Positions 19,601 to 53,091 of a stretch of 64,000 bases of DNA are shown here, one piece after another. This DNA comes from Phoronis australis (taxonomy: Eukaryota; Animalia; Phoronida): NCBI GenBank assembly GCA_002633005.1, contig NMRA01000634.1, positions 1 to 64,000 of the forward strand, given 5' to 3'. Position numbers and translations under genes: made by a program. The notes beneath the pieces were generated by a model that saw nothing but the letters and a program-made list of their open reading frames with translations, did no database searches and was not told the DNA's origin. Every line of letters starts with the position of its first letter. Positions within the stretch are counted from its first letter, which is position 1.

Positions 19601-22600
19601 CCATTCAAAAATAAGACTGCTGTGAATCTAACAATTTTCTAGGATCACGTTTGACATTCAATTTTTGAGGAAATCGATATCTAAAAATACTGTAGTTGGC
19701 TAAGAGCTGCGAAAACGTTGACATGGTTACGCCTCAGATACGCCATCCAAGTTGTTGCGCAAATGGGAGATGGCAACGTTATCCCCTGACCCAGGCAGCA
19801 ATAATTCCTAGAGTCTTATGGTCTGCAAACGTGCGCTGTGAAATGTAACAATTCGTAAAATGTAACAACTGTTACATTTACGTCATTATTACATTTTACG
19901 TTGCTAACCCTCTCCTAAAATGTAACAAGTTGTTACGTTTTACGTAGTTGTTACATTTCACGTCGAATGCACATTCGAGAAATGTGCCATTGTTACATTT
20001 TTCGAAACCAACGTCATATTGCATAGAAAATGACCAAAATCACGAACAAGTGGTATCTGACACGGCCGGGGGCACTGGAGTATTTTGGACAAGGGGTGAC
20101 GCCCGAAAAACTTGAATACCAACTCTTTTAGAGAGCGGGATAAGACAAAAAAGTGACGCATTTAGAGATTAATTTGTATAAAAATGTACATTTTCGCACA
20201 GTCCTGATCCAGAAATTCAAGAAAGGCTCCTTTTAGATATAATTTTGTCGAAAATGGCACCATTTTGGAGAGTGTTGTTTCTGTGAAAAAAAAACACCCT
20301 TTTGGGAGCCACTTTTCGTATACCTCTTCTGTAGGAATGCACTCCAGACTGACACGACATGAATTTGGCTACCTATTATCACTTTTATTAGTATTACACT
20401 ACTATTACTGCTATTACTACCTTAACTGCCTTTACTGCTATTACTATCGTCATTACCATTACTCGTCTTCACTCTAGGTGTTATTATTATTTTTAATATT
20501 TTCAAATTTATTTAACGAGGACATAAAACATGTTTGGGAAAGTGCTAATACATCATGGTCCTCAAAGTTTTTAAAATCATCTCATTTATGGTTCAATCTT
20601 TTCATCGGGCTTTCCATAGTGGACAGGGAGTGCTATTCCAAAAGAATATTAAGGGGGTTCCTATATGTTCAGCCTTAACGATAATGTGAGAAACGTCTTG
20701 ACAACTATGGATGCAGAATAGGTCTACTTTTTGGAAAACAGGAGGTTGAGAATTAAATTCTTGTTTAGACGTGCATCAACTTCAAAATTTTATTATTTCT
20801 GAACTATTGGAAAGCACTGTATTGTTTGTAAATATAACTATATCTATCCGTAATTTGCTGCGAAGTGCATAATACAGACTGCAATGTTGTACTCGCGACA
20901 TCAAAACGTGAGGATAGCCACCGTGTAATCAATTTTATCTCTTGTTGAAAACATTCCTTTTCAAAGAACTGGGGATTTTTCGCGATGATGTTTAAGTTCA
21001 AAAACTGTGTTAAGTTGAACGCTGGAAACAAACATTTTTCGGGAACTAACCACTAGTTGGCTACGGTCACCGAATCATTAGAATATCTGGTAACAGACAT
21101 ATAAAACACGCAACCATCTTATGTTCTTGGAAAAACACAGTGATATAACAAAGTGATTTGAACAAGGTTTCATTGATAGTGGATTGTATGGAGCAAATAC
21201 GGCCAACGTCGAAGTCAGCCATGTTTAATACGAGCTCATGCAATGCATCAAAAGGGTTAATATAGCAAATACCCTAATCTGCGAGTTGCAACACTTCATG
21301 TCCATTAATAATAGAATTCCAATCTTTGTCTTTATTTATATGATTGTGCTTTTAACTAATGAACATTTGACCAAATAGCAATTTTAATAGAACGAGAAAG
21401 TGCATACTTTTGTAGTCCAAAAGGCCGACAGTCAGCTTTTTTGCCGAACTATTGTCCCTTTAAACTACCGGCCTGGACCAGGTTTGAGCAAAATGATCAT
21501 GTCATTTCAGAGTGCAAAGGATTTTCTATTTCCCCAGCTAGGCATCTCATTAGGTGTACGTGTCACGGTTTGATCTGTTGTTATCACCGCTATTTCAGAC
21601 AGGTTTGACATCATATGAACAATGGTATTTCTCTCAGATTTTAAGCTGTATAAACCACACTACTATACCGCCACTTTTTAAACTGTTGATTCGCCCCTTT
21701 CAAAGGCGATATTTTACTGTTGATTTGGAAAAATCTGTCAACATGTCGGCTAATAAATGCGTGCTTTTATTTCTTTCCACCACAATGTCTAAGAAATTGT
21801 CATTCGTGGTGGACAGAACACGTTGGCATCAGAAACTTTGGTTTTGCTCCTTTTGTGTGGAGCAGGGCAATTAATGCATTAGCGATGACTCCAAGGCAAT
21901 AAAACACTGGCCGAAATAAACCAAACTATCGTGAACTAAAACGGGAGTTTTTTGTATCCAATTGGCTTCCTAAATAGAATTCGCCATGAAAAGTTTTGTT
22001 ATTGTCGTTTGTTCCCGAAGAAATACGATAAATATTAGCCATATACGATGTCATTGTTGTGCTTACCAAGGACAGTGTGTTTACTGTAATGACGGGTAAA
22101 CAATTGGTTTATGACCTGCACGTGTCAACAAAAGATTGCAAGAACGCTTTTCGATTAAAAAACTTGATGCTTAAACCTGGAAATTGTTTCGTGTGGAGTT
22201 TAAACTGTACGCTTTACATTTTGACTATTCCATAAAACTACTCAGACACGTTAAAAAACATGGAAAGCACACAGGGACACATCTAAAAATTCGACCTGGC
22301 ATATTTCATCGAATTTCGTTCACCCAATCCGAGAAAGAAGGCGTTAAGTGTGTGTGAACGGCTTTCCTCCGTGTGAAAAATATGCAAACTCATGAAGTAT
22401 GGCGTCGCTATCGCAAAATGTAACAATGGTACATATCTCGCATTTGCATTCGACATAAATTGTAACAATCACATAAAATGTAACAACGTAAAATGTAACA
22501 ATGACAAAAAAATGTAACAGTTGTTTTATTTTACGAAATTGTTACATTTTACGGCGTATAATCGCTGCAACCGGTTGATAGGATCAGTAGTTTTGCTACG

Positions 22601-25600
22601 TGGCTCTTTAAAATTTAAAAAGAGCCTACAAATGTGTCACCATTGGGATAAAAGCGTATATCGTCAATTGTTACAGAAAACATTACCCGAACAACGAGTT
22701 TTTTATCGGCCTGTCATACGGTGTCCATGGTAACGAGTGGATTGACGGGTCTGCGACCTTCTACACAAACTTCGACCATGGTGAGTATAATCCTCTTCTG
22801 AACAGCGTGAGACCTTCGCATGACCAAAGACATCGACAGTCTTTGCAAACATTTGATGGTTTGTTGCTGATAAGATATCATTCACACATGTTTCTTATTA
22901 ATTTTTGCGCTTACTGTTTTTGAAATGCCGCAGCGCAGCTTCCCTGGATTCAACCCTCCTTTTTGCGGAGGTGGACAAACGCATTGCATGATTGATTTAG
23001 TTGCCGAAATGTAAGTCTCTTGACAAACATCCTGAGTTCCTGAGCTGCGTTGCACATATGAAGAACGGTTCATCCCACCCCTCGCGGCTTTTCAACTTTT
23101 GTGTCCGCACTGCGAAACAAATTCCAGCTTTTTGGATCTATAATTACTAATAGTGAACCGATTTTGATGTAAAATGTAAAACAGAGGAGTGCCGGCATTT
23201 TGGGTAAGAACTGCAGAATCAAAGAAGGCTTGGCACTATTAGGAAGTGACTAGAAGATCACATCGAAAGGGCGGATCTCAAACTGCTAAAAATCTTGTCT
23301 TAGGAGACAAATCGAGCCGTAAAACCAACCAACGAACTTGGATCCTGGTATACATGTTGTGAAGCTACACATAATAGACTCACCGTATTAGTTTCAAATC
23401 TCTACGACTTTTCCACCCGAATAATACGTATCCAACAAGAAGTTTTTTAATGATGGCAACACTTTATTTCCATCATATCTTTAAAATATCACTCAAGTGC
23501 AATTCCCAAAATGTCCATATTTACAAAACAAGTCGTTTACATATGAATGCTTATACAGCGCATGTTTTGGTGTAGCTTGGACATACAAGTTTTTCGCTTC
23601 AGCTTTGAAAACGAGGTCAACGTTATCAAATTTGGCGCCTTTGGTATAAAACATGAACAAAATGTGAATCTTGCTTCTTCAGATATCGTGCCAACGACAT
23701 TCTCCAATTCGAACTTTTACATTTCTTGTAGTGACCTTGAAAATGATGGCCAAGTTCTCCAAAATCGACTGGCACTTGCAGTTACTCACCTGCGCCTTGG
23801 CACAAAGTACAAATACAATCTAAAGCTTCGGTCTTGAGTAATGCCGTCAACAACATTTTCCCGCGTTGAAATTCGTTTCCTTGGAGAGAAAATGTAAGAA
23901 TCAAACTAGTGATGACACACTAATTCCTTCTGTTTTTTCAGGTCATGGAGTTACCAAGAAAGTTGTTTGTTACCCAAACCAACTGTTACTGAAATGTCCT
24001 ATTGGCAAAGTTCTTCGTATACACAAGGCAAATTATGGACGAACGTCATCTAATGTTCCAAACTGCGAAGTGATTGTAAGTGCATGAAACATAACAAAAG
24101 CGAGTTAAGTTCTACGCTCAAAGGTGTAGTGCACAGGCTGCCAGGGGTAAAACAAAAATTAAAGCATCGTGGGTACAATGGAAATACACGGGAAGCTGGA
24201 TATTTGAGAAGCCGTATCAGCAGCGATATACATCGCTCGCGCGGTTAAGATTTGTGACGATAGGGGGTCGATAAGTGGTGACTAAAGTTCAGTTAAATGA
24301 AACAGTCCCAAATTTGGACTCGACAAAGATTTTTAAATCGACTGCGTATTTGTGACTTTCTTTTTTCACAGATGTATGTTTCTATCATTTTAGGCTTATT
24401 TTCAGCTCCTGTTCGGCTAATGACATTTTCTAATAATGCAACGCAAAACTGAGCCCAGTGAGTTCAGTTATAATAAATAGGTACTTAGTCCTTAAATTTA
24501 GGGCATTGCTTGAAATGATCCCTATTTATTTTCAATAATATTGAAAAGTCAACACAGACTTCACTTCTGATTTGCAACAAAGTCATAGATTGACTTAGTA
24601 ATGAAACTAAAACAGCATAAGAAAGGACAATCGGCGTTTTCACAAGTCACCAAATCCGCAATGGATTTTGGGAACTTAGTTGAGTCTCTATTTAGGACTG
24701 TTTCATACAACCAGGCACAGACAGTTTTGTGGCTACCCGTGTGGTGAAATTGGTGGTGACCAGACGGTGATTGGTAGCAACTGGGTTTGCGGATACTACA
24801 TGACGTGCCTTGGACCTAAAGTAGCCTTGTTTTGACTGGCTTTAGGCTATGCAGAATCCAGAAAAATGCTCAATTTTGGTTAAATTTGGAACTTCATATC
24901 TCAGAAATGGCTTGACGTATTCCCATGAAATTTTATATCGTGTTTTATGCACTTTTCTCCAAAACGGTGTTCAGAATTAATTTTAAAATGTTCCACCTTT
25001 TCAGGAAAGTCTATCAAAAATAGGACTTTTCAGTTTTTTTTGAAAAAATAAAGTTGTCTTAAACGGAAAACGAAATAATATTTCGAAGAACGGTAACTCA
25101 GTACGGCGTTTTTGAGATGTTATCTTGAACATTTACATCATAGGAAATTTGCACGTTATTGACTTCGCTGTTTTACTTCGAATGTACGCCTATTGTTCCA
25201 CGAAATTTTACTTTTTAGAAAATATGTTCTAATATATATATATATATATTATATTCTGTGGTTGTTTACGTATTTGGCTAAATGTGCACTTTTGTCTATA
25301 AGGTCATGCTTAACCTCAATGACATTTTACTTAACCTCAATGATATTTGTGCTGCATTGTTTTCCGGTAGAAACACATGGTCGACTGTATCTCTCCGTCC
25401 AGCTTCACCATTATTCACAACGCTTGTCACAACAAGACTTCGTGCTCAGTTGAACAATCAACCGCAGTGTTTGGCGATCCCTGTGTTGGAGAAAGAAAAT
25501 ACATCGAAGTGGACTACGACTGTGTTGAAGGTATACCTAGATCATGTTCCGAAATCATTTTAAGGCCACATTAAAGACACTCTTTCCTGTTTTTGCAATT

Positions 25601-28600
25601 TTAGAACGAAAATTTCATTAACCAAGAGATGTCATTGAAATAGGAACAGTTTGTAAATTACAACCCTCAGCTGTTGACCTGATTGTGTATTCGGAGTGTT
25701 TACCAGTTCTTACAATTTATACCGCAAACTTCTTCTTACATCTTAGAACAAACGTGGTTTCCATTTCAGAAGTGAACACTTGTGCCGTGTTGGACCCGTC
25801 TGCTGGTTTCGCATGGAAAGGTGTGTCGTGTAACAAATCCAATGTTGGATTTGTATGCAAAAAAGGTGAGGAAGTCTGTTTGATCATAAACAATGAATTC
25901 TTCCAATGAATTTTTTGTAAAACACGTATTCCTCTTTGAGAGAATTCTGTACAAATGATCAGCCAAAATAAAAGTGCCCATGAAACGCTTCATCGAAGAA
26001 ACGAAATTTTGATTTAGAATACTTATTGCTATGAAATTGGTCTGAGCTTGTTTCTTACTGAGATGGGGAAGGATTTCTTAGCTTGCAACGACTTGATATT
26101 TTGTTGTTCGTTGAGACTATTCTCGGCGCATGAATTGACACGTCAACATTAGAAGATACAGTATCTCGCAGAGCTTGTTCTCAGGCAATAACGCATTGTC
26201 AATTTTTGATGCCCTGCACTGACCCCCACTTATAACTAACATTACGGCGTTTTCCCGTTGCTCCCAACTTGTTCGATTCTATAGCCCAACAACAAGATGG
26301 GAAGTTTACCCCTGTATCCAATATCTTACACGATTAGTTAACTCCATTCCGGCATTTATGGTTTGAGGGCCAGCTCTCTTTTGTTCGATAATTGCTCTTA
26401 TCTCCACTAAGATCGTATCTACAATGACTGGGCTGTGCTGTTAAAAAAGGTTAAGTTACAACATATTTGAACATAAACCAATAGCATTTCTTCGTAAAAT
26501 GGTGGTCATGTTTAGTTTTTGAATTGACAAAATCGCCCAACTGCAACCGAAGTTACGACAATCTATTCTTTCCGAGTACACCAATTCACTCCGAGTTTGA
26601 CTGTGTTCACATGTGGTCTGTAATAAGCCTCGTAGATAATTATCCTGCTTGTTGTCATAACAGACAAAAGAGTGTGCTAGGCAGTTAACAAAGAAGCTAG
26701 ATTTTATCACATGCTCAGAACCCCCTACGTCCGGTAAAGTCACTGAACGGTAAAACGCTCTCATGAGGAACAGTTCGAGACCAGTTTGATAACTGTAAGT
26801 GGTCTCAATCTTAAATTTGTGTTTTCTGAAGGAGGGTGTCTTTATTTAGCGCTTTAAACGGGCAAGGTTGTGAGATATGTGTGAACCTGACATTCGAACT
26901 CCTGACATCAAAATCAATCTACGAATCCACAGAAGTCTATGTGTCCTTGACCTCTGTCCTCAAAATCAGTTGATGTCATCTACATGTCGAAATTAACGTA
27001 CACCTGGCTTAAAGACCGCTACTCTGGGCGTTTTCTAATCAACAATCCAATGTGTCCAGGGTGAAAATCTCTGTGACCTTGAAAAAGTTGGTTTGCTGAC
27101 ATCAGCACCTTCAGGGGAAGGGATTTAAAGGCCCCGTTCAACTTCCATACCCGGCCAAGTTTGAGGACCATATCCTCAGAGTTGAGTTAATGTTCGGAGA
27201 ATATTTTCGTTGTGAATGTCAAAGTGCAGTTGCACAATCTTTACTTACCGATCTTAAAATCAATAGGGCCCATCCCCCTATGGGTGTCTGAATCAATCTT
27301 TAAACAAATTTGATGAACAGGATCTCANNNNNNNNNNNNNNNNNNNNNNNNNNNNNNNNNNNNNNNNNNNNNNNNNNNNNNNNNNNNNNNNNNNNNNNNN
27401 NNNNNNNNNNNNNNNNNNNNNNNNNNNNNNNNNNNNNNNNNNNNNNNNNNNNNNNNNNNNNNNNNNNNNNNNNNNNNTTATTTTCAGCTCCTGTTCGGCT
27501 AATGACATTTTCTAATAATGCAACGCAAAACTGAGCCCAGTGAGTTCAGTTATAATAAATAGGTACTTAGTCCTTAAATTTAGGGCGTTGCTTGAAATGA
27601 TCCCTATTTATTTTCAATAATATTGAAAAGTCAACACAGACTTCACTTCTGATTTGCAACAAAGTCATAGATTGACTTAGTAATGAAACTAAAACAGCAT
27701 AAGAAAGGACAATCGGCGTTTTCACAAATCACCAAATCCGCAATGGATTTTGGGAACTTAGTTGAGTCTCTATTTTGGACTGTTTCATACAACCAGGCAC
27801 AGACAGTTTTGTGGCTACCCGTGTGGTGAAATTGGTGGTGACCAGATGGTGATTGGTAGCAACTGGGTTTGCGGATACGACATGACGTGCCTTGGACCTA
27901 AAGTAGCCTTGTTTTGACTGGCTTTAGGCTGTGCAGAATCCAGAAAAAATGCTCAATTTTTGCTAAATTTGGAACTTCATATCTCAGAAATGGCTTGTCG
28001 TATTCCCATGAAATTTTATACCGTGTTTTATGCACTTTTCTCCAAAACGATGTTCAGAATTAATTTTAAAATGTTCCACCTTTTCAGGAAGGTCTATCAA
28101 AAATAGGAATTATCAGATTTTTGTGAAAAAATAAAGTTGTCTTAAACAGAAAACGAAATGATATTTCGAAGAACGGTAACTCAGTACGGCGTTTTTGAGA
28201 TGTTATCTTGAACATTTACATCATAGGAAATTTGCACGTTATTGATCTCGCTGTTTTACTTCGAATGTACGCCTATTGTTCCACGAAATTTTACCTTTTA
28301 GAAAATATGTACTAATATATATATATACATATACATATACATATACATATACGTATACGTATATGTATATGTATATATATATTATATTCTGTGGTTGTTT
28401 ACGTACTTGGCTAAATGTGCACTTTTGTCCATAAGGTCATGCTTAACCTCAATGACATTTTACTTAACCTCAGTGACATTTGTGCTGCATTGTTTTCCGG
28501 TAGAAACACATGGTCGACTGCATATCGCCGTCCAGTTTCACCATTATTCACAACGCTTGTCACAACAAGACTTCGTGTACAGTTGAACAATCAACCGCAG

Positions 28601-31600: not shown

Positions 31601-34600
31601 GATCTCAAGCCTTTTGAAGTTATTAGTTGGAGCATTCTTGATATATTGAACGATCAATGTGAGCATCATGCACTTTTGAAGCGTCAGAGTAAGAATTGCT
31701 GCATATTTCCGAACACGTGTTGGACGGAAAATAATCAGGAAATAACTCAATTGGAATTTTGTATGTGTCAAAACGACCATGACAGCCGCTTTCAGAATTA
31801 CTTATATTTGCTGATCTTTAAAAGACATGCCAATCACTTACTTGTTGTACAGAAATTATCCGCGAACAAATATGTCCTCAGTTTCCGGAGATCATGTCCT
31901 TTGGTGCATTTCTGTAACAATGTTGGGTGTTACCATACGCCCTTCTCCTCGAAGCAGAATGCAAGGGAACATGCGATTATTCTCCGTTTTTGTTCTGCTT
32001 TTGTTCCCAACTAAACGATGAGCCGAACTAAATGTTAACGACGCAAAACGTTCCCTGTCACCAAGCAGCAACCGGGGCGTGTAATTTATGTTCAGAAATG
32101 TTGACCAGCGTTACAGTAACCATAACCATACCCAACACACCAAGCTCTTTACTTCAGCTGCATTACATTTTTAAATAGTGTAATGGTTATAATGAAGGAT
32201 GGCAGTATTAGTCACGGTCATTCCCAGAACGTTTTTACTACTCTTTTTACTATCCTTATCAGGCTAATGCTGAGACTGAGTTTTTTTCCAGCTCGCCAAA
32301 CCTATTCTCCCTTGGACTGTACTTCTGTGAGTGGAAATAGCCAATCAGCGACCTGTCCCGCTGGTAAGACACGTTCAATACAACAATATCGATCGTAGAT
32401 ATCCCAAAATACGCCATGCATGTATAATAGTAATGTTCGAACGTGTGCGTTTATTCAAATACAAAGCCGTAGATTTTCCATAAAAAACCCATTTTCGTTA
32501 TTTGAAACATAATTTTACCATTTATATGTTATTTCCATGGAATTGTGATTAATTACCTCGTCTGTAGCCATGGCTGAATGGCAGAACTGCGAAACATAGC
32601 GAATGTCCCTTGTGTTCGGAAGCATTGCGTTTTAACAGTTGCGGGACCTTTTACTGTTGCATTGTCTGATAGATCGAAATATGAGATTTGGGAACCCCTT
32701 TTCCGTTCAACAAGAGAATGCATCTGACGAGCAACGAAAATTTTGTTAAACATCTGTTTCGTTTCAGACTCCATTATGCAGTCTGTATAAGACAATGCCT
32801 CGGTTAAATATGCATTTTACTCTGTTTAGTGGTTAATACAAAAGTAAATTTAACTAGTTCGATCTCATAATATTCTTTACCGCGTAGGATTTTATTTCCG
32901 TAACCAATTTCGAATTCACAATTTTGGGTTTCTCCAATCCCAAAACACAAAAATGTTCCTTGAGTCGCTGGTGGTAATCGAAATGGAATCTTGTCGCGAA
33001 AAGGAATATCATGATTCGGATTATTTGAGAAGAAAGCCCTATGCCACTTTCGTTTTTAGGCACCTAAAGGAGACAAAATGCAACTTTAAGAAATATGACA
33101 GTTAGGTTTCTGACAGTCTATATTGTTGGGTAAAAAATAAAGTTTTGGTGTGAATTCGATGATACACTTTCTAGCCAGCTAACCATTGCACATAAAAGGC
33201 AATCTACAACATTGGAGTCACGGTTTTAGAGTTTGGGTGCGCATAGTACTTATGGGGTAGTTCGAAGCACTTTTTGTCTCCTTAGAAGGCTGTTTGCTGT
33301 CAGTTTTTCCTGGCTATGTAATGTCACTGATTCGATGGCACCAATGCGCCAATTTTACTGAGACTCAATTCAAATCAAGCCACTTCATGCACACTCTAAG
33401 GCAAATGTATCTTCAGTTCTATCTTAGTCGTGTGTCTTCATAAATTTCAGACTTCCCGCAGGGCGTCGCCTGTCGATGTTCGTGTGCTAATGGCCGATGG
33501 AAACATTATCGACGCATATGCGACTGTTCTCTCTGCAGCTCAAACGCCGTTAGTGTGGCGCGCTGTTGCAAACCTCATTCAGGTTATTCACCCGGCCCCG
33601 ACTACAGGGCCTCTGTTGAATGTATAGAAAATCGTCATACACCCCGAATTGCAGCGCCCAGTGCAACTTGCCCAGCAAGTACGTATAGTTTAATGTCTTT
33701 CAACCCTAAGCAGAAATATTTTGCTATGACACAGCAAAATGAACCACTGAAACCAGCGAATTTTGGGTATTTTTGATTCATCTACAATTTCGTAAGCAGA
33801 CGACAGTTTCTGTTATATCAGATCGGGATCATACCTTCCATATTTTCCATAGCTCTCACGGTATCTGTTGTCTTAAAGATTGAATATGAAGTAAAACTTG
33901 GAAGTACGAGTATTTAGACCATACAGATACATATACCCTGGAAGCAAAGATCATAGACAACTAATTAGCCACTGCCATGTCATTTAGGTGTCCCGACTGA
34001 CGTAGTAGCGTAAACAACCAACACCGAACGCGAGGCGCCAGCTTTCCAAGAGGTTGCCCCACATGTACTCATTGATAATAAATGAATTTTATCCCATATA
34101 CGTGAAAATATGGATGCTGTATACGTCACGTTATTAAATGTAAAGTACGGGAAAGTAGAGTCGGCAATCCGACAAGCTTTTGATATTTTTGAATGGTTCA
34201 ATGCTTTAACTTGTATATTTCACAAACTGAAAAATCTAACCAATTTATTAGGAAATAAATATTTACATGTTATTCAACACTCTCACAAATCAGTCTTGTC
34301 GCTTAACCGGCTTGGGTACCGTATTTGGCACATCTATGATGTCATATAACAACAAGCCGGAGCACACGGTAACAGAGTTTTGCAGCGATGATGCAAATAA
34401 GTCCTTACATGTATGCATGAGATAATTAGGTTATACCACATACATAGGAATACTACTCGAGATCATTTCATGTGAATTCTTTATAGGATATGACAGTAAT
34501 ATTCCCATGTATGTGGGATAACCTAGTACATGTATATGTTTTTACTACGTGAGGGATTGCGTTTCTGATGATTGTATCAACAAAACCATATTCATCCACG

Positions 34601-37600
34601 CCATGCATGACACATTCTGTTCATCGAAGACGCCACAGCAAAACCTTTGGTCTCCAGCAATTACTTTTCAACGAGCTTTTCTTTGAGGAGATGACTCCAT
34701 GTCGCTTTCATTTTTATCTCTGAAATGTTAGGTAACAACAATTTCACTGTCAATAATGTAAAATTGACTTTCGGATTCTTGAAACTTAGTGAAACCACTA
34801 GCTTCGTCGGGTGGACTGGGCGGGGTGGGGGTAACTGTAAACTCACAGTGCTACGAAAGTTAGCAATGTGGAATGTTGTTTATCATGGCTTCCCATTGGT
34901 CAAAGTAATGAAACCGACGTCATTAACATTCAGTCATTCCCATCGGTTGAAATTTTGGAAACCCCTTACAGTTTACTGTTACGTAGTATGGCGACCACCT
35001 TTGACTTGAATAGTTGGAATTTCCCAATCCCATGGCGAAGCCCAACCAAGTACAGTGCATTGAAGTCGTCTGTAAGTGGTGGCCATGTGATCGATAAACT
35101 TCCGATCAAGCCTGCACATTCATGCCCACACACGGAATTCCGTGTGTGGTTCATCATGATTCCATAGGGCCACTTTTAGTATAGGTGGCGCTGCGTAGAG
35201 AAACACCCCTAATTACAGCACCCCTTGCAACAATACAGCAAAATGAACCACGTAAACGAGCGAATTTCGTAAGCAGGCGACAGTTTCTGTCAACTCAGAG
35301 CCCCGGGGATCGTACGTACTTTCCGTATTTTCCATAGATCTCACGGTACGGTATGGACTTAAAGAATTGAATATGAAGTAAAACTTGGAAGTACGAGTAT
35401 TTAGACCTCACAGATACCCTGGAAGCAAAGATCATGGACAACTTATTAGCCACTGCCGAGTCATTTAGGTGTCCCGAGCGCAAGGCGCCAGCTTTCCACG
35501 CCGTCTGTTGTGAAGAGGTTGCTCCACATGTACACATTAATAGCAAAATTTATTCCCTAAATGTGAAAATATGGATTCTGTACACGTCACGTTATTAACT
35601 GTGAAGTGCGGTAAAGTAGAATCAATCATAAACAACGGTAGAAGCCGTATACAATGGTAGAAGCCGTATTTCACGGTTGGTGAGCAGTCTCCTGGTGGAG
35701 TAAATTCGCGAGTGCAACGATTGAATTCGTTCATTTGGGTTACCCAAATCATCGCCCCAAGGTGTCATTCCTGAAAAAGCAGTTTTACTGCTCTAAAAAT
35801 TTACCGATGAAAATTTCGAACCACGGTGATCAGGCGGCTATTTTTGGGCCTCGCTGAAGTTTCAATCAGGGTCATCATAAATAGGTCAAGATAAACAGCG
35901 TCCCCGGCCAACAAAGTCAGCCAAAATCTAATTCAAATCCATCGAAAACGTTTTTTGTGGATGCATACAGTGTATGTATTCTGAGAGCTAAGGTCTTTAC
36001 AGGAAATTGCGACCTAATTAAATATCAAGTATGTGTATTTTTCTGAAACTATCGTCTGCTTGCCAGTCTCCGTCGCTAGCGGTCGTAGCGTAAAATCTCC
36101 TTTTTGCGATACAGTCCCTTACCTCAAGTTCAGAAAATCGGCAGAGATTCCATCGTTATTTTCCAATGCTGTGATCAACACTGGGAAATGTTTATATGAT
36201 AATTCACAGTCCAAAAGCTAAGATACGAAAATAGACGAAGAAAACTAAGAAATTCATCGAAACTGAAATGACACACGGCTACACAAAGTCTGTTCAGGGA
36301 ATTTTTCAACTTTTATAGTCTCGGATGGATTGTTTCTAAGTTTCCGACAAACTTTCACAGATCAATCTTGTCGCTTAACCGGCTTGGATACCGTATTTGG
36401 CATACAAATGACATCATATATAACAACACGCTGGAGCACACGGCAACAAGGTTTTGCGGCGACCATGCAAATAAGTCCATATACAGTATATGGGATAAAT
36501 AGGTTATCCCACATCCATAGGAATACTACTCGAAATCATTTCCCAACTCGACCTTCGGTCTCGTTGGGACATTCCCGAATGAATTCTCGATAGGATATGG
36601 CAGTAGTATTTCTATCTATGTGGAATAGCCTATTATATGAGAGAGAGANNNNNNNNNNNNNNNNNNNNNNNNNNNNNNNNNNNNNNNNNNNNNNNNNNNN
36701 NNNNNNNNNNNNNNNNNNNNNNNNNNNNNNNNNNNNNNNNNNNNNNNNNNNNNNNNNNNNNNNNNNNNNNNNNNNNNNNNNNNNNNNNNNNNNNNNNNNN
36801 NNNNNNNNNNNNNNNNNNNNNNNNNNNNNNNNNNNNNNNNNNNNNNNNNNNNNNNNNNNNNNNNNNNNNNNNNNNNNNNNNNNNNNNNNNNNNNNNNNNN
36901 NNNNNNNNNNNNNNNNNNNNNNNNNNNNNNNNNNNNNNNNNNNNNNNNNNNNNNNNNNNNNNNNNNNNNNNNNNNNNNNNNNAGAGAGAGGCTTGGCGGA
37001 GGGAGGAAGGGAGAGAGGAAAGAAAGGGGGAGGGAAGGAGGCGGGGAGGGAGGAGACATGAGAGATCTTCAAAAGCAAAAGCCACTCCATTGAGGGTCCC
37101 TGTACAATACAATACAATGCAGTACGATATAATACAATGCAGTACGATATAGTACAATGCAGTACGATACAATACAATTTAAGTAAGCAATAAAAATACA
37201 AGACGGTAATTATTAGGCCCCATTTACATATATTTGACAAACAGTGAACGATTGAACGACTGACATGTAGAATCAACAGCCCAAGTACTTCATTAAATGA
37301 ATAAACTTGACACCTGATTACAAATAACTAGCTGCTCCCCTACTATAAAACAACACTTTTTGTCTTGCAAAGGTTTTGGTGTAGTTAACGAATGTCGTTT
37401 TGCAGATTTCCCGACAGCTACAGACTGCTCGTGTGGTTACTGCAATGCAGATTTTGAGATTACCAACGAAAACACGTGCAACTGTTCCTCTGCCACGACT
37501 GATTGGGCCACAGCACAGTGCTGTAGGATCGTATACACGCCGAGATCAACAGGTTGGTTTTTACGTTTAGCTGGTGGTTAAAGTGCGCGATCTTGTCAAA

Positions 37601-40600
37601 TCCGCTATAAAAAGTGTTACGGACCATGGTCTGGGTTTGTCATTACAATGTCGTGTTAAGCATTATTTTTTGAAAATACGTTCATAGTAAAGTAGTGGAA
37701 CGGTTTTAAAGAACGAACAGATCTGTCTCGTTTTCAGAGGCTGTTCTTACAGGATTCTGCTGATTCCGCTAGACCACCCTTCTTTAAAAGTGATTGATTC
37801 TATTGACGATGTTAGTTTTGGTCCAAATAGGGCCATAAGCAGTTGAAACCCCAGCACGACTGTTGTTAACATTATGTATTCACATATTGTATACTTGCGA
37901 CCCTGTTGTTGGGTTTTGGTGAACTTGAGAATGTTGAATTCGACTTCATAAAAACATTGGATTTTTGTCTTTCTGTAAAAGCATAAAGTTAACAGCAATT
38001 GTGCCGTGACTGGTTCTTGATGACGACTTCCGTCTTTTAGATGTTTTACCCGGTTCATCAAGCTGAACGGCGAAGTCAGTCATGAGAAGCTAAATATGTA
38101 ATAGAGCCTGCACCTCATATTTTCACATCACGAGTTTTATTTGAATTCCAGTCAGTGACTATACGATATTTATTGTTGCTTCTACCATTGATTTAATGCA
38201 ACTGTAGGTGACCAACTTATAGAGAAATACTTGACAATAGACGGCATCGTTATCGACGGACACGACAATTGGACACCTTCGGGCGTTACGTCAGAGGATG
38301 AATGTTTGCAAGCGTGTGAAAATCAGGTGACTTTCTTCTTTCAAAAAGTGCTTTTTATGCGCTTTCAAAACACACCCTGCTGGTACATATCGTCTGCCCT
38401 TCTTGGCTGGATGTCGTCCACCAGTCGTTGCTTATTTGTCTTGAAAGTTATTTTTACTGATCTTTAATTGCTGGAATTTGACACAGATACATGTGAGAAA
38501 GGGCCAGCAACACTTGATTTTCAAATGGACTACAGTGTGTTAGCCATTTTAACGTTCAGTGAGGTTGTCCATGTCATTCCATTACTTGTAACAGATACTC
38601 TACTACACTATTTCACGGGTGCCGCAACACTGAAATAAGTGGGGAGAATATAGCCCTCCCCCAGCCCCACTATGCTGCGCCGCCCAACCACATGTATTTT
38701 AGATATGAGGCAAAACGAGAATCCACATAAAATTAGCTGTAATTCATTGCGTATTCCTGTTCACAGAACAAGGTGACTCATTTATTTGACATTCTAAACT
38801 GGTGGATACGGCTTAACGCATTTTTTGCTCTCAACACGGAGAGAAATGGTTGGGAGGTTGCCAGCGCCTGAGACTGTTCGACAGTGTCTACCTAAATATT
38901 TTTCATATCAGTGAACACTGATGACGCGTAATACACTTGCACTTTACTTAGCTATCTCCCGTCTAGATATGTAGATGCGCCCAATGAGGCCAAAGCCACG
39001 TCCCTCTTGCGAAAAAGTCACAGAATCTATTGGTTTCCCGCCTAAATAGGGTTTGAATTGAGTGCCGTGGACACAAGAATCTTGCTAGTAAAGTTAGGGT
39101 GCTTTGCTTGTGAAGCATTGCGATAGCTGACGAAGCTTTGCGTTTCGAGAGTATATTGCGTCTCTGGAACAGGCTCAAGGCAGCTGTCTCGCCTTCCTTA
39201 ACTTGAGGCACAGAAAACACCTGAGTGTGCTGGCACCAACTATACACGAGTCCACGATTTTGAATTGGGTATTACAGAATAATGAGTTGACTAATTAGTT
39301 CATTAATCTGTCAATTAGTACATGAAGGGTTTTATTAGTATTCTCTGTTTTGTTGCATTTTGGTAACACTCTTGGTTTTTAGAATGAAAAAATGTTTTAA
39401 GCCTGTCCAGTATGCAAAATGATAATAAAATTTATGAAGTAAATAATTTATATTTTGCTTGTGGTATAATCATACACCATCACGAAATGAGAAAGGATTT
39501 TCTAATGGCATGACTCTTGTGCCATTCTAAGCTTAATTTATTTGTACTAACCAAACATTTCACCCTGGGCTCTATGTTTTATTGCAAGGACAACACCGGA
39601 AGGAACGAATGCAAACAAATCCCACGCATGCGCGACACCATCTCAGTCACGCGAGATCGAAGTTGGTATTCCATGTCTAGAGTTGAGCTGACTTCCTAAT
39701 GTAGAATACCCATCCTTTTTTCTCTCGATTACGGTTCTATCTCTCCACCTGCGACATTATTTTCTCATAATTGCGATTTTTCACAAATAGCCGAGGCCAT
39801 CGGCAAATTGTACGTGTAACAACAAAACACCTACAAGCGTACGCCACTTGCCATGGTCTCCCTTAAAGTATCGTTTGATTATTAGGTCGGGTGTAATTCT
39901 GTTGAGTTCAAGTCGTCTGATAGCACCTGTCGACTGAGTGGGTCCGCAATAAAGCATGTCGGCCTATCAGGGTTACTGCAACAACAGTCGGGATATACGT
40001 ACTACGAGAGGCTGGACGGGGAAGGTGAGGATGTGTAAACCATCTCAGAAAATGTATTCCTTCATGCCAGTTCTGCACCACTAGAATTATTGCAATTATT
40101 ACGATTTGTATGCTGTTAGCGTTAAATACAAAGAAACGAGGCCAGGCCATTTTCAAGATATTAACCTTAGTAGTCATGCTCACAGACTCAGAGGACTCTT
40201 CAATGGCCAACTAGACGCGAAGCATGTCTTTGAATAGGTGCACATCTTAACAGAAACGGTGCTTATATGATGATGTTTTCGTATTACTGTTTTCGGCATT
40301 AAGTGCACACCAGAACTGTCAGTTGCGATGCCCTACGTAGCAATATGTTTTAATTACTGAAGTCTCTGTAAGTTCAACAGTGTTTAACATGACTTTGCTT
40401 AGACTTTTTATTAACTGACATCGCGCCTTAAGTTATACGCACTAATAACCTACGCGTTACTTGTCTGCAAGTATTTACTGACACGGGGCTACAAATAGAA
40501 ACCCGTTGAGCACAAATTCTTTGGACTAAAATCTGCAGTTGGAACTTTACCTTTGGAATTCGCGATGACCCTGAAGCAAAAATAAGTTGCTGGTACAACT

Positions 40601-43600
40601 GAACACAGGGAAAGTCAGGTGACGAAGAAAGTAAGCACCATTTTTGGAAATATCAATATTTTCGACACAATTTCTTCTTCCCATGCCATTTTATCAAATG
40701 TGCCTCTGCCGAAAAGTTTATATGGTCATTTCAGAAACAATGTAAATATCAAGCAAACAAATTAAGTCATTTTAATACACGTACTGACCTAGTTTTTACT
40801 TGTCACACCCATATTTGGAAACGAGACCAGTCGTCTACCCACATGTTACAATCATTCAGAACAGACAGGCTCTTGTTAGCGTAAGTGGAAACAGACGATT
40901 GGGTTGAATTTTGGAGTGGCGTTTTTAATCGTTAGATTGTATTAACTTGGGACAGTCAATGCTTGTGAAAATCAGTGTGGAACAAAGGACAATTTTTTAA
41001 TCCAGATAAGTTTCGTAATAGCAGTTTAAACAGAACAAGTTTCAAAAACTTTGTTGAAATTTCGTTTCATTATTACATTGAAATTGATGTAAATAAAATA
41101 AAAATTGGACGTGGTTCGACAACAGATACTTTTAAATGGTTGATGTCGGCATTGCAGTAGGCTGTGTGGTCTGTTGCATGTCTTTTAAAAATTGGCAGAC
41201 TAGGCGTTTTTTTCCGACCGGTCGACGATCGGCCGCAGACTCGTTTCGGATCGACCGCATAAAATCTTGTGACCTGCAAAAACACTACTAATGAAATAAA
41301 ATAACGACTAAGGTAAAAGTTCTACTATTTAGACGAGTTTCTGGTAACATATTGTTTTTTACAGGAGATATTCGAAATTACTTTCACAAGTTTGACGGCG
41401 TTTACCTCTCCGGCGTTACTGCAATTAATACCATAAGCGACTCCCAGTTGACTATGACTTCATGCATGACTATTTGCTTGGAGGACAGCTCGTGCAAATC
41501 GACGGATTTCGATTCGTCAACTAAAACATGCTACTTGCGAAGTGGAAACAGTTTTGATGGAACTCTGACCGTGTCCAGATATTACTACCACTTTGATCTT
41601 ATCACGAGTACCCCAGGTAAGAACCTCTAACCGCTTTACATGATAGGACATGGCATCGTCTGCAACTGAGTTTTGAGTAATCGCCTCGTCGCCAAAACTA
41701 TAGACGTTTCCAGATGACATTTTGTTTTCATCCATCTCCAAGCTTGATTATCCAAAGTGATGCTTGGACTGAAAGGAAGGACCTAGTATGAGAAGGATGG
41801 GTAGGAGAAGGAAATGACGAGGTTGTGAAAGTAGTGATGTTATTTTTTGATTAGCACCTCATTAAAACTTGCAGTAGATGTCAGCTTTTGAGGTGGATGT
41901 TGTTAGGAATATCGCACCAACTATGCTGAATGAGAGTAGGACCACACATTTTCAGAAGTTGAATTTAGTTTATGAAACTATACACTGTACATCTTTAATA
42001 TTGCGACGCGAAATGAATAAAATTTCGACGTTTGACAGGCGATACGACAATTACGTCGGTAACACGATGTGAGAAACACGGCCCCTCGCATATCCGTGTC
42101 TCCGATTTTTTTCTGACATTTGCCGTCTCCACTTGAACACCTTCTTTTCGATTTCTTTTCCGTTCTTCCCATTTGGTTCAAGTTTTCCCATCTAAAAGGT
42201 TATTTCACATTGGACGATCTAGTCCGACCTCGTTTCCATGTTATTTTGCTGGTAGTAATGCATAGGTTTTAGTTAGGCAGGCATCTAGCAAGAAGAAAAT
42301 GTACATTGACAAAGGATACTGACACGGACGAAGCCGGCACATGCCGCTTCACAGGTTGAAGCGACACCTTCCTTTAAACCCATGTTCTGGGACACGCACG
42401 CATACTGTTTGAGATCCGTAAAAGGTCTCTTGTGCATGGCGATTGCTGAATGAGTTTTTTCGAAAATTTTCCACTAATTCAGGAGCGTACAATTTCTGAG
42501 TCGTGTTTTAGGGGTATGGGGAGATATTTGAGAGTCCATGTCTTCCAAAATGTCCGTCAAAATCACTACCGCCACCATTACAAGTGTTAGCACCACCCAA
42601 GCCTCTCGGCCACAAAGCCAAACTCCATTTGCAACTTGGGCATTCTGTGTTTTCATGTCGATGCGTAACAGAAATGATGTTGATAATCAAAAGCTGTTCA
42701 TTATCTAGGAACGCAGTATTAGTCATGCTGGGACTGAAACTAAAGTCTTCACACGGCAAAGCGACTAAACAGCAATCTCACCATTGCCGATAACGTCTTG
42801 ACCGTGAGCACCATCTCTAGTGTTTGAGTAATCAGGGTTTTTTGTCAGCTTAATACAGTTGCAGTGCAATGTACCATAAAACAGAGCAAGTGTAAAAGTA
42901 ATATTTTTTCACTTTCAGATCCCTTCTTTACTTGCGACACGGTGAAAAGCAGTGAAGCTGACGCTAATCAATTCTCCTGTGGAGCAATAGGTATATTCCT
43001 AAATGTATTGCATTATTGCATTCTTATGCGTTGTGAGAGTATTATTACCGTAATCCTTACCTGGAAAGGCTATCTGTAAGTACGGAGTAACTGGACAATT
43101 TGTTTATTCTGTCAGACTCTACAAGTAGGCCATCGACTAACTGTTTCAGCATGTTCGCAAATCTATACATGGGTTTCAACCATTCGACTGTTTTCGTCTT
43201 TGTTCAGATACTTGATACGCAATTCTTGACTTTTAGGATACCCGGGACCAATATTTTCAATAATTCTCAATATTCACTAGAAATGCATTTGAATTGCAAT
43301 TTGATACTTTCGTTTCATACTACCAAAGCAATGTGAGATCCAAATGTCTTTTAACTTGCATTTCAGCCACGTGGATGGATCACTTCACTTACGTTCAAAC
43401 CGCAATATTGTCGGGTTACAATGATGAATTGCCAAACAGCGACAAAAACGCGTGTCTGAAGCAATGTCACAACTCTGCCAGCTGTAAAACTATCGACTAT
43501 TACGACAACGCAGGTAAAAATTTCAACGATTGATGGTTTAGCCACTTTATTTCGGCAGGGTTCCATGACTTAAGTTATTCGACACATTACGTGATCTTGA

Positions 43601-46600
43601 AAGACCAATCCTTTCCGTCAGTGATTAGTGAGCGCACTGGGTGTTGTGTTTCTGCTATTATCATTTGCCCTCATCCACGGTCAACTTCAGATAACATTTT
43701 CACCTCCTCTATCCGTTTATTACACTTCGGCTAACCGGAAATAGCAGAAACACCCAACGCCATCTTCGTTCCCTTGGAAGAACTGTTACATTTTGACCCT
43801 TGTGGATTCTCTGTTCAGGAGAAAAAAACATTGAGACACGACTCGTAAAAAATTATTACGTTCGCGATAGCTAACCAGGTACATCAATTAGTCTATACTT
43901 ATTTCATGAAGGGTTATTAATAAAAACAAAATCTGGGAAACTACTTGAACATTTTTCTAAGGCAGGAGTGATGGAAATAGTCTATGAATCATCTTTCTGT
44001 TTTATTCTGATATGATGTAAAACTTAAAGAGTTTCATTTTAGACTATAGAATGGAATCATAAGTTGTAAATCTTTTTTACATAAAATTATAGTCAAGGAC
44101 TCGGATACATGCTCTTTTTGTGAAGAGGAATCTGAAGACCCAATTTTATCTTTATTTTTTTTGGCCTCGTACCAAATACTTTTTGCATTCGTTTGAATTG
44201 TGTTTTTAGACAAACATCTGTAGTGCTTAATTTAACTCTTTTTGTGAAAACTGGCTAACGCAATTAAATTTCACATATATAAAACAATGCTAAAGAATTT
44301 AACCCTCGGTTTAGATCGACCAAAATAGAAGTTCTAGATTATTTTAAAGTTTGATTTTTATAAAACAGTAAATTTGTTGAGTTTGAAAATAGGTGGAACG
44401 TATGAAACGTTTATTCATCCTCAAGGCCATCGGCCCACAGTACCTAATATCAGCCAGAACAATAAAATAGAGTGAATAGGTTTGCGCATGTGTAGTAGTT
44501 TCAATCGTCAAGTAGTTTTAGTCTTAAAACAGAAGCATGATATACAAATTTGATTAGGTTTTTAAGCTAAAAACTTGAAATAGATGAACTCTTTTAGATT
44601 CACTTTTTATCTAAACGTCTTCACATCTAATCTCTGTGCAAATGTGAGGTTTGTATGTGGTGTGAATGGTATATCTCTTATCTGTGTTGGTGTACAAGCA
44701 TAACTGTTGTCATCTTTACTCACTACAATGTGAATTATGGATACACTCTAATAAACATTAAAAAATAGTAAAATGCTGCATAATTTCATTTTTGAACGTT
44801 CTAAATAGAAACCATTAACGTGATTGAACTCGAGTTTTCTTATTTTACTAAGTGTTTGCTAGGACTATCTAGTTAGCCTAATACATCTAAAGTAACAAAA
44901 TCCCGTTGAAGTTAGGCTTTAAAGAATCTTTGCGGCATTTGATGGATGTATTACCACAGAACCGACAGCGGGTGATAATGAATTACAGACTGATTGGAAT
45001 GCCGCTGTGCCCCATAGTGGCAAATTTTGCATTTGCCTCTGTATGTTCGGAGTTCATAAATGGGTTTCGTGAAACTCAGGTAATAGTTTTCTGTTATGGA
45101 AGCACTTGTGCTTTCCATTTTCCCACGGATTTGGCGTATTTTGCTCCATTTTCGTTGTTTTTAGTCCGTTTTTGCCATCGCCTCTGTATTTACCGAACCG
45201 CCGAAGGATTAATATGAGAATCGGTATTATTTTTAATTATGAGGAAAGTATAGCTAACTGTCGGTCAGGTGCGGCTGCTGTGGCACTCCAGAATGACAAC
45301 GCTGATTTTTGTTTGCGTCCAGAGCTGCATTTCCTTAATCCTTTGCAGGATCTAGTGAAATTGTGTCAAGTGTTTTTCTATGAGTGTGACAACAGTAGAC
45401 CGCGTAGGATACAGGGATCTAACTACTGCTTGTGACAATTTTAGTTTTTACATTTGCCTCTGTATTTTTGGCGGTACTTGACAGTTTTTTATGAAATTTT
45501 ACGTATGGGTTTCTCTTATGTGATGACCGAACCTTTCGGTGTGGAAACAGATTTGGAGTAATTTACGCCACCTTGTGGGCGCTCCTGACTCTATTTGTGT
45601 CGTCTGTCTGAAAACTGGCAGATACCTGTATGTACTCCCTAACGTTGACTTTCGGGTGGCTCCGATCACTGCGGTGTCCACTACTAGCATTTTTGCATCT
45701 GCGATTGTGTCTTCTACACTCCGCACTAGATGTTTCTGAAGTTTGACGAGTGTATTCACATTTACTTGACAACAGTTGGGCGAATCCCGATTAGACCTCT
45801 GCCTGCCTGTTTTTTTTACATGAGTTCCTTGACAGCTTTTCCTGAAATGTGACATATAGATTCCTGGTAGAGAGACGACGACTCCTTTCATTTTTCGGAC
45901 TGGTTTAACGCATTCTGCGCCATCTGGGGAGCAATTTTGATACTCATTAACACCATGGAAGCTTGACATTTGCCGTGCAATCGTGGACGCTTTTCAAAAC
46001 TTCGCGTTGCCCTTGTTTACGTTTACCTCTGTGTCTTCGATGTTATTCAATAATTTAATGTTCATGAAATGTTGCAAATGGGTTTTTATTAAGGAGGCAA
46101 CGAAACCTCTTTGTTTTGGGATCGATTTCAAGTATTCTGTCAGGTGTATTTCTTATCAGAAGATCATTAATTTGCGGACAACTCCAACTATTGTGGCGCA
46201 CCCTAATGGCATTTTTGCGTCTGCGGCTTCTTCTTCTACACCCCTTGCAGGATCTTTGTTAAATGAATTTGTATTTTTATGAATGTGACAACGGATGACG
46301 ACAACTTATGTGGAGTTAGGGACAAATCCCAATTCTGTGCTGTCCCCTAATGGCAAATTTGGTTTTCTTTGCGTTTCCTTTGATATCTACAGAGATTGTT
46401 GATGCGTCTTCTTTAAATTTGGCAAAAAGTAACCATCACGTAGGCGAGAGCACCTGCATGTTGGGGATTGATTTGATTTGTGTGCTCCCACTAGTGGCAT
46501 TTTTAATATTTTTGCTGTCTGTTCGTTGTCGTGCGCTTCTTGATCCTCCAAACACCTTGACGAATTTTACAAAAGGCGAAATGAGTGTTCCTATGAAGGA

Positions 46601-47890
46601 GATCATTAGTGACTGGGTTTGCCCCCTACAAGCTACTGGATTATATTGTTCCCTTCACTGGGAATTTCTTTGTATTTGTACTTAGTAAAAATGCAGATCC
46701 CTGGTTATACTGAATATACATTTTACCGAGCTCCAGTGTACATGTAAGTGCTGTTCCCTGGCGTGTATTTATTATCCAAATAACAAGAGGAAGTGACGGG
46801 AATTGCACCTGTCCTACTCGATATTGAACCTAATCTCTGTCGGTCATTCATGTTTCCTCAATGGAAATGAGAGCAGAACCAAGATAATGAGCCCTTTACG
46901 TCATTTTCTGTTGTTGCGAGGATAGCAATAACAAGAGACCAATTCATTAACACAAAAAGTACTTCCAACATAACCAGATATCTGTGGATTTGCTATAGGC
47001 CACATCAAAACAGTTGCTTCCCATTTTGAAGGCGATGAATTGTTTGAAGCTGCTTGCAAATGCACGTTATCAATACTGCTTTTCATTTTTTTTCCAGCTA
47101 AAACTTTCATATGCCACATAAGTTACTCAGATCGCTTTGCAGTATCGGCATACCTAGCGGACAGCGCGTATTTCGAGCATTTTATTTTTGACAGTTATCG
47201 AGGTAAGTATCATTGTTATTATGTATGTGTCAGTTACCTGGCTCCTCACGCTTTGCATAAATTTTATTACATGTATTATGTATAAGTCCTTCCACAGTCT
47301 TTTCGGAACCTAGTGACTTTTGACTCCGATTGGATATTGCAACGCCTCTCATCAGTCAACGTTGTTGACACATAACCACACATTCCCATTGCCCAAATAT
47401 AATGCTTGAGGTGATACTGCAGTTGTCACGCGCCTAGATACATGTATGTGCTCTCTCACATAACATCCTGATCACCTCGGGTATTTTCGTGGCTTCAAAT
47501 TTTCTCTCAGAGGTGAACGTTGTCTGCACATGAGCGAAGTTCAGTCATACATCATTGTCTTTCAAACTGTAGGACGATTAACCGTGTGACTAAAGTTCGC
47601 ATATGCACAAAACACCCGACGTTTTCCGAAAGATACATCTTCCGAAAAACCTCTAGTATTTTCGCATCCCTTGGATGTGTTTCATGTCAGCTTAGGTGCC
47701 AACTTAAATCTTGACAGCAAGTCATGTGACTCCCGAAATGGAAAATGACATCAATGCTCTGGGATTCCCAAGTGATAAAAGGCTTAAAAAGCTTGGTTGA
47801 AGTCGTACCTATCTCTTGCCCGAATCCATCGACTATAATGACGAAGACAGAAGACAATTCCGCAGGTGTTGCGGATGCGTTTACACACAT

Positions 47891-47964
<74 letters not shown>

Positions 47965-50900: not shown

Positions 50901-53091
50901 CTCTGACCTAGAGGTTTTTTTGGACAGATGTGTTTAATTCAGTATACGAATTTTATCATTTATCGCTTACATATACGTCACAAGGTTCGGAAATTTACCA
51001 ACCTTTATGGCTTACTTCTAATATCTTGATTGGTCACAAACCTGCTTACATTCGATCCTTTTATGAAAAAGGCGTAAGATTTGTTTGTGATTTATATAAT
51101 GAGAATAGACAACTTTTATCTTTGAACATGTCAATCTCAATATGGGGTGGGAAATATGTTGCAAACATTTAAGTAGTGTCTACACGCCTCACCACGTGAT
51201 CTAATGAATATAAGTCCGAAAAAATTTCTACCTCGGAAGGGGTTACATCTCTTATTTTACACTCAATTCTCCACAAAATTCAACTTCAGGATTTCTTTCT
51301 TAACCTTTTTACAGCTTACGGCAAGGTGTTATACAGTTACTTAAATGCAATGAGATGAATAATTTTGAACAAAACTCCCACTATTCCCAATGGTGCTACA
51401 AAGTATGACACGTGATAAGAAGGGAATTCGAACTTTTTACGAGAATTTTTTGAAATTTTATATAAAAGCCCAAAATTTTGATCAAGATGGGAAGCTGATT
51501 TTGTAATTGAAAAGTCCGAATCTGAGTGGCGATATATTTTACGTAGCGCTTTTGACTTTATCCCTGTCAATGACATACGCTTAAAGTGGATGCAGATGAG
51601 AATTGTCCACAGAATAATAGGAACAAACAAACTGTTGTTACAAATAGGAGCTAGTGATTCCGGTCTATGTAGCTTCTGTCATGCGAGGTCAGAGTAAATT
51701 GCTCTTTGTTTTTTGACATATCTTTCGCGAAATCTTCTGACAAAAATATCGGTTTCGTGTGTGCGTGTGTGTGAAACTTATGAATGTGCATCAGTCAACT
51801 CTAGATGTACTGGTTACCGGTGATACATGTCTGTAAGGACTTGTTTATGATATGTGATCAAGTACTTGGTTATCTAACAAAGTTGGAGTGAAAAAAAAAG
51901 AAATTAATAGGTTTCCGTGATGTATATACGTTACCATAATCAGAAAGTTTGGTGAATTTTTTCCTAGGAAACAAAATCAGACAAAAGTCATCTCCAACAA
52001 ATCTCTGTTGACAACAATGAAGTCCTGCCGTGTCCTTACTGGCCAGTCTCAATCTGAAAGCGCGCGCGTGTGTGTGCGTGTGTGCGTAATTTTGTTTCCG
52101 ATGCATTGTCATAGGTATGTGGTCTCAAATGCGACAGCGTCGCGCTAAACGTGGGCTAAATACCGGGAAAGCAGTTGTCCTGTAATAACTACATGTATAC
52201 AAGAAATGTCCTCTTACAGCTTGTAAACCCGGCACCTACTCGCCCACGGGTTACCATGGCAGCATTCGCTGTTCACCTTGCTCAGCTGGGACCTTTTCTT
52301 CCAACACCGGAAGTACGGAGTGCCAAAAGTGTCCCGCAGGTAGGTTGGACAATACTCTTCCATTTAGATTATTTACAGTTTAATGTTGTACCGTTAAGAC
52401 ATTTGTAGTTGTTCGGCATAAAGCAAAGCGTTACATAAAATGTATCTTAAACCAAGTCTGCGCTCGTTGGAACGGTACTGCTCTCAAACAAAGCCCAGAA
52501 ATAATAGCTTAAAGTAACCGAACGTAGTATGGGCTTTCCATGCCTCTTTAAGAAGATAGTGTTCATGATAATTTTGTTCCTTGTCAGGTTATTACTCGGC
52601 TCAAGGTCAGGCACAGTGTACGCCTTGCGACCACGGCTCCATTAGCAACATCTCTCGCATTACATGTGAACCGTGTCCGTCTGGCTACACGTCTCTTCTG
52701 GGAGAGTGTGCAGGTAATGGCAAATATCCAACGTGCAGCTCTTTAACGGGACATTATCGGCTTTACGGTCGGGATTATTGTTAGGAGTTGTTAGCTTTGG
52801 CCAGAGCTATAAAATTGCAAATACGATGCTAGCAGTTGTCTGCCAGACAGGCCGAAAGCAAGGCCGGTGACTTCGCTAACTAAATATTCTTACAATACTC
52901 CGTCATTTATCGAGTGGGGTTTAGTTGCGTCAGCAGAGATTTTGACTGCTACTATAGGGTTTTGAAGATTCGATCAGGTTTATCAGAAAATCACCAGGTG
53001 TTGAGAGCACAAACGCCACTTCTGCTTCACTCAAATTCTAATTCAGGTGTGTTGACGATGGCGAGGCGCAATTTCTTTCATTCGTACACGC

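Follow-up and report, generated by a model that had tools for sequence, protein, structure and literature searches.

The origin and ancestral role of resistin and the RELM (FIZZ) proteins are a standing question, and one that a mosaic gene of the phoronid Phoronis australis addresses. The gene lies in a stretch of 64,000 nucleotides (assembly GCA_002633005.1, contig NMRA01000634.1, positions 1 to 64,000 of the forward strand), referred to below as the window, which is eukaryotic in character, has a GC content of about 38% and contains three N gaps. A model of 24 exons on the plus strand (13623-59902) encodes 1286 residues without internal stops; its 23 introns are all GT-AG and 20 of them are in phase 1. 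At about residues 411-546, exons 9 to 11 encode two consecutive domains, D1 and D2, that resemble the cysteine-rich head of resistin. A first-pass annotation made from the letters alone had proposed two tandem resistin/RELM-like domains within a lectin/PAN mosaic of about 1290 residues, a size that the model confirms. How do such heads come to lie inside a large invertebrate protein, and what might they do there?

Two resistin-type heads and the splice that joins them

Exon 9 (32292..32363, plus strand, as all exons below) encodes the first half of D1 with two cysteines and ends with C-P-x plus one base, that is, in phase 1. Exon 10 (33451..33678) supplies the second half of D1 with eight cysteines and the first half of D2, and again ends with C-P-x plus one base. 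The second half of D2, with seven cysteines, is encoded by exon 11 (37406..37552). The three exons are at the annotated positions; they have AG and GT ends and phase-1 joints and contain no stop. D1 begins seven residues after the lectin exon, and its last cysteine is separated from the first of D2 by 17 residues. The ten cysteines of D1 are spaced 11,9,1,1,11,1,2,9,0, exactly as first described. D2 retains the DW..A.CC end and has nine cysteines, spaced 15,9,1,2,11,1,11,0; the eighth is absent, a point that the first-pass annotation had left unsaid. The homology that it claimed for both domains holds.

When the exons were scanned singly, exon 11 alone matched Pfam Resistin (PF06954, curated cut-off 25 bits) with 33.5 bits (E 6.6e-8). 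Its PDB matches below E 1 were 1rh7, 1rfx and 1rgx, which are RELM-beta and resistin, with E 3e-7 for RELM-beta. A profile built from the three window exons with no vertebrate input gave three PDB matches, all resistin or RELM-beta, and two matches at E<=0.001 among 1.84 billion proteins, the polypterid resistins of reedfish and bichir. Conversely, a profile made from 20 vertebrate heads (of 23 proteins tried, those that fitted the cutting pattern) scored spliced D1 at 23.3 bits and spliced D2 at 40.4 bits, and neither score was reached by any of 1000 full shuffles or any of 1000 shuffles with the cysteines fixed. Identity to these 20 heads is 29-42%, and only 23-25% at non-cysteine positions. 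Profile-profile comparison returned a probability of 96% (E 2.5e-9), and exon 9 ranked first of 527 upstream candidates for the first half of D1. These comparisons support D1 and D2 as true homologues of the resistin/RELM head, and this homology is far more certain than any function. Single exons did not match the PCSK9 family or chain in the Pfam or PDB searches.

We examined RNA from three raw runs (X1, X2 and X3; about 18-19% of each was read) and one contig set, all under the same species label. The gene is weakly expressed. X1 covers the bins of exons 9-15 at low depth and on one strand only, and three of its reads carry the GT-AG joint between exons 14 and 15. At fine scale, two of the 50 placed X1 reads reached a likeness of at least 99%. 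They begin at the exon 9 acceptor and run into exon 10; the depth of 2 over exon 9 drops away at the donor and returns with exon 10. The splice between exons 9 and 10, as inferred from depth, is thus supported. The first-pass annotation had named two junctions for confirmation by RNA: depth and the two X1 reads back 32363/33451, while 33678/37406 is without a listed read. The exon 11 bin showed low stranded depth only, and intron 10 contains a 334-base N gap.

Two further features of the RNA were noted. Between 33550 and 33657, about 100 extra bases of exon 10 depth appeared in X1 at 85% likeness but not at 90%, which may reflect a divergent allele or a paralogue. Intronic repeats at 34100-36620 and 39058-39819 attract most RNA reads at 90-95% likeness, and are dispersed repeats, not exons.

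Several results weigh against the assignment of the heads or the gene that carries them. The only Pfam match of exon 10 was Resistin at 8.1 bits (E 5.5), and exon 10 alone found nothing in the PDB. The halves of D1 are weak on their own; D1 therefore depends on the 9/10 splice. The two X1 reads that span this splice are perhaps one molecule, the joint itself stayed under the threshold for listing, and X2 and X3 gave no such read on exons 9-10 (0 of 38 and 0 of 30). No read was listed for the 10/11 and 11/12 joints. Among 2883 six-frame segments, exon 9 was outside the top 8 on a first-half-only profile and exon 10 outside the top 8 on a second-half profile; the first half of D2 ranked just 73 of 641 candidates and adds little score. 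Neither D1 nor D2 follows the spacing described as invariant in RELMs, and D2 lacks a cysteine. Models of the half domains were of low confidence (predicted local distance difference test, pLDDT, 54 and 57), and a tree of 28 heads had long branches and low support and was set aside. The protein searches turned up no relative built in this way, and the evidence for the architecture is a single gene model. Finally, exon 9 joined directly to exon 11 gives a head of 48.9 bits, which outscores both D1 and D2.

This last result bears on whether the model is a chimera. In that case the resistin-like exons would come from another, smaller gene or from an isoform, and annotation would have created the mosaic. 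The N gap in intron 10 and a tandem duplication ahead of exon 9 would favour a chimera, as would the fact that phase-1 exons stay in frame in nearly any order, with the direct 9-11 joint making the best-scoring head. We nevertheless consider a chimera very unlikely: two RNA reads run from exon 9 into exon 10, the depth in the exon bins is all on one strand of one run, a single signal exon and a single stop exon were found, and inspection by eye of the surroundings of exon 9 revealed neither a start codon nor a signal peptide of its own. Exon 10 is symmetrical (phase 1-1), and its omission leaves the 48.9-bit head described above; no read in the RNA examined supports such skipping.

A shared intron and the spread of the head

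The gene structure provides a comparison separate from the scores. Variants of human RETN are numbered c.196+30 and c.197-16 in the accessible part of PMC10608506, which places an intron after coding base 196. This base corresponds to C-P-R plus one base, with codons counted by eye in the PMC4467842 supplement, and the S2 figure text of that paper gives both RETN introns as phase I. In a Chinese alligator gene with a duplicated exon 2, also from the available portion of PMC4467842, the repeated unit ends with C-P-S plus one base. D1 and D2 are each interrupted at C-P-A plus one base in phase 1. The intron within the head, in phase 1 after C-P-x, is at the same codon and in the same phase as in human RETN. 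The matching codon is evidence of common descent independent of the sequence scores, within the limits that the D1 and D2 copies are not independent of each other and that phase-1 introns dominate the gene. Descent from one ancestral animal module is therefore likely.

The same result speaks to a convergent cysteine pattern without common ancestry. Short cysteine-rich domains often score by composition, and the D1 halves are weak singly. Against this, no shuffle with fixed cysteines reached the observed scores, the reciprocal matches were to resistin only, and intron codon and phase are identical to those of RETN. Convergence is largely refuted already and keeps next to no probability.

Common descent does not make the protein a RELM. 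D1 and D2 share with vertebrate resistin/RELM (PF06954) the head sequence, the phase-1 intron and, putatively, secretion, and D1 also has the ten-cysteine frame. RELMs, as reviews describe them, are proteins of 105-114 residues with one C-terminal head, an N-terminal coiled-coil stalk for assembly into trimers and hexamers, and an invariant C-x11-C-x8-C-x-C-x3-C-x10-C-x-C-x-C-x9-CC. The present chain of 1286 residues instead carries two or three heads in its middle, the stalk is absent and the spacing departs from the signature. D1 and D2 belong to the resistin domain family; the whole protein differs from RELMs in size, stalk and spacing and is not one of them.

The first-pass annotation had further described resistin and RELMs as small stand-alone vertebrate proteins, but this is not the only form in which the head is known. 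A table of Pfam domains in sea anemones counts Resistin four times in Nematostella and once in Aiptasia (Ying et al. 2018, PMC6214176, Table 2 and Table S14); the entries, as seen there, are counts only, with no architecture, intron or function. A lamprey protein (XP_032826388.1, P0035) likewise carries the head as a module on another protein, but as one canonical C-terminal ten-cysteine head behind a collagen stalk, and in a vertebrate. PCSK9, according to the accessible text of PMC9113161, has three tandem resistin-like modules in a larger secreted chain, together resembling the resistin trimer; these modules have six cysteines (disulfides 1-6, 2-5 and 3-4) and follow a subtilisin domain, whereas the window domains match resistin itself by sequence.

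Heads were also recovered in bacterial and environmental proteins. Six-cysteine heads end a metagenomic protein (P0037) and the proteins of two loci (L001:2049-2642 and L002:3-290, confirmed in 1 of 45 and 1 of 138 pattern matches), one of which is in a bacterial genome bin. These three have single C-terminal heads that keep cysteines 1, 2, 3, 6, 9 and 10, and lack lectin/PAN domains. Given the disulfide pattern that we take resistin to have, the retained cysteines would pair 1-6, 2-5 and 3-4, like those of the PCSK9 modules. Together with P0036 the three are all above the Pfam Resistin cut-off (48-77 bits), each head being joined to an unrelated N-terminal part. P0036 itself, a protein of 209 residues, probably starts with a signal peptide and a coiled coil; a middle part of unknown type and a canonical ten-cysteine head (76.8 bits) complete it. 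None of 29 pattern matches in viral contigs was confirmed. When a fish head was used to search the Atlas by structure, the rows listed included bacterial clusters with collagen repeats and shufflon domains at TM scores of 0.66-0.73, below the bar for naming a family.

Among vertebrates we found resistin-like proteins in bichir, reedfish, sturgeon and paddlefish, and collagen-fused in lamprey (P0005-P0014, P0035, P0038). Hu et al. 2015 report no resistin in ray-finned or jawless fish in the available part of PMC4467842, the one survey of resistin/RELM evolution that we came across, which covers 116 vertebrate genomes only. A 2006 paper, in its accessible text, treats resistin as a domain that first appears at a late node (PMC1654190), and the word 'invertebrate' is absent from the accessible portions of two RELM reviews.

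The heads in lamprey, bacteria and anemones point to an ancient module. The head is thus older than vertebrates, as the proposed pre-vertebrate modular origin implied, and one gene cannot order the modular and stand-alone forms. The novelty first attributed to the locus was overstated, since annotation tables already record the domain in non-vertebrates, and because automatic annotation has it in anemones, lamprey fusions and bacteria the surprise is moderate. Among the papers listed in the literature searches, which did not extend to InterPro, subscription journals or most supplements and took in 40 of 2276 and 40 of 1601 rows in two cases, none described a protein with a resistin domain from an invertebrate; only the anemone table recorded the domain. 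What appears to be new, as judged by these searches, is the tandem lectin/PAN architecture together with the shared intron.

Other searches were less informative. A word-indexed search with exon 11 among longer proteins gave no homologue candidate, which is weak evidence; a search with a mixed alignment scored 7992 candidates and gave five matches, with no lectin/PAN mosaic among them; and an Atlas search with exon 11 gave a single uninformative row at 0.76.

Architecture of the mosaic and a possible third head

The model begins with a likely signal peptide next to the start codon in exon 1 (13623..13671; judged by eye and hydropathy), followed by two PAN domains in exons 2 and 3 (14552..17254; PAN_1 37.8 and 40.1 bits). 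Exons 4, 5 and 8 (17700..25865) encode a C-type lectin-like domain, as suggested by a Lectin_C match of exon 4 (E 0.0078) and weak matches of exons 8 and 5 to C-type lectin structures (E 0.013 and 9.1). Inside it, exons 6 and 7 (23942-25530) encode a SUEL lectin (exon 7, 49.2 bits), an insert bounded by phase-1 introns and situated, by eye, near the sugar-binding loop of the C-type lectin-like domain. D1 and D2 follow. Exons 12-14 and 16-18 (38208..49665) encode four PAN domains with PAN_1 matches, exons 12-14 also having X1 RNA depth; they are arranged as two PAN domains, a 24-residue exon (exon 15), two PAN domains and a resistin-like half (exon 19). Two ephrin-receptor-like cysteine-rich repeats (PF07699) in exons 20 and 21 (52220..52713) score 32.6 and 26.8 bits, above the cut-off. 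Exons 22-24 (53372..59902) complete the chain with PAN, PAN-like and PAN domains (PAN_1 33.9 and 38.7 bits for the matching pair) and the stop codon. Exon 23, with an uncertain acceptor, had no Pfam match in the scan and is PAN-like by eye only. Altogether, nine PAN-type repeats were counted: seven above the Pfam cut-off, one as two sub-threshold halves and one without a match.

Hydropathy peaks at the N terminus and the best later window of 19 residues reaches 1.22, which argues that there is no transmembrane segment; the protein is predicted to be secreted and soluble.

A tandem duplicate, 24396-27327 and 27478-31607, of 92-96% identity flanks an N gap and carries second copies of exons 7 and 8 (28504-28663 and 28865-28960). 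Use of both copies together would break the frame. The likely explanation is a tandem assembly of two alleles, or else exons used alternatively. Fifteen open reading frames in introns and flanks had no Pfam family apart from one match at chance level.

Exon 19 (50235..50369) is likely the second half of a degenerate third head, D3. Its sole Pfam match is Resistin (E 0.082), it is second best of the 2883 six-frame segments on the second-half profile (E 0.081) and it starts at about the same phase-1 position as the second halves of D1 and D2; in the PDB search it had one match, to an unrelated structure. A possible first half is exon 15 (42919..42990), proposed by eye and from its size, with two cysteines and 72 bases in phase 1-1, and separated from exon 19 by two PAN domains. 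Adding it raised the score from 12.6 bits for exon 19 alone to 14.0 bits, rank 105 of 437, and it remains a weak lead. The start of the profile was reached by 4 of 215 candidates, all overlapping exon 15. By sequence, D3 is likely a half domain with an uncertain partner.

Binding modules, spacers or effectors

We propose, with a probability of about 0.6, that the 1286-residue protein is secreted and acts in multivalent surface recognition of a lectin or adhesion type, with the heads as binding modules and not as a hormone. The likely ligands of the PAN, SUEL and C-type lectin domains would be glycans or proteins of microbes, mucus or cell coats, with many modules of low affinity together attaching the protein to a surface. 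The D1-D2 tandem probably arose by duplication and shuffling of phase-1 exons. Each head would likely fold as a single beta-sandwich, which in the resistin head has six strands. When the half-domain model with pLDDT 57 was compared with 48161 chains, only resistin and RELM-beta reached a Z score of at least 2 (Z 2.9, root-mean-square deviation 2.0, 38 aligned residues), a match that is weak and partly circular because the input alignment contained vertebrate resistins. Foldseek rows obtained with a half-domain model were all at E>5 and were discarded as noise. As the stalk that forms the RELM trimer is absent, each head likely works on its own or in contact with others of the same chain; D1 and D2 may pack against each other like the three modules of PCSK9.

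Could the heads instead be passive, disulfide-rich spacers in a structural extracellular protein of mucus, egg coat or adhesive, their ligand site lost? PAN-rich proteins are often matrix components. Cysteines are missing in D2 and D3, D3 is degenerate, and identity to vertebrate heads at non-cysteine positions is low, all of which would suit a spacer. Yet D1 keeps all ten cysteines and D2 its DW..A.CC end, and two lectin-type domains argue for recognition; we regard a purely structural role as unlikely.

Charge bears on a third proposal, in which the heads permeabilise membranes as RELM-beta does: lectin and PAN domains would direct the protein to bacteria and D1 would attack anionic membranes, perhaps after proteolytic release. 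The antibacterial membrane activity of RELM-beta maps to its C-terminal region in the accessible text of PMC13647132, and the net charge of D1 (+4) is at the top of the range of the 20 vertebrate heads (-1 to +4). In contrast, D2 (-4) and D3 (-5) are acidic, which leaves D1 at most as a candidate for the anionic-lipid binding reported for RELM-beta. The heads also lie mid-chain without a stalk for oligomers, and cleavage is putative only. Such an effector role seems to us quite doubtful, and binding modules remain the preferred explanation.

An equally doubtful extension would combine these elements: three heads, the third split by two PAN domains in its ancestral intron, would pack as a stalk-free, PCSK9-like pseudo-trimer within the chain, bridged through the unpaired fifth cysteine of D2 and that of D3, to form a lectin-aimed unit that binds microbes or attacks membranes. 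If this were true, vertebrate resistin would have started as part of a pattern-recognition protein of invertebrates and later become independent.

Taken together, these results make it likely that resistin goes back to an old binding module that was spread by shuffling. With the shared intron in a lectin/PAN mosaic, gene structure as well as sequence now connects the vertebrate gene with an animal module of greater age, and the basic D1 and acidic D2 provide natural stalk-free variants that bear on whether binding or membrane attack was the ancient role.

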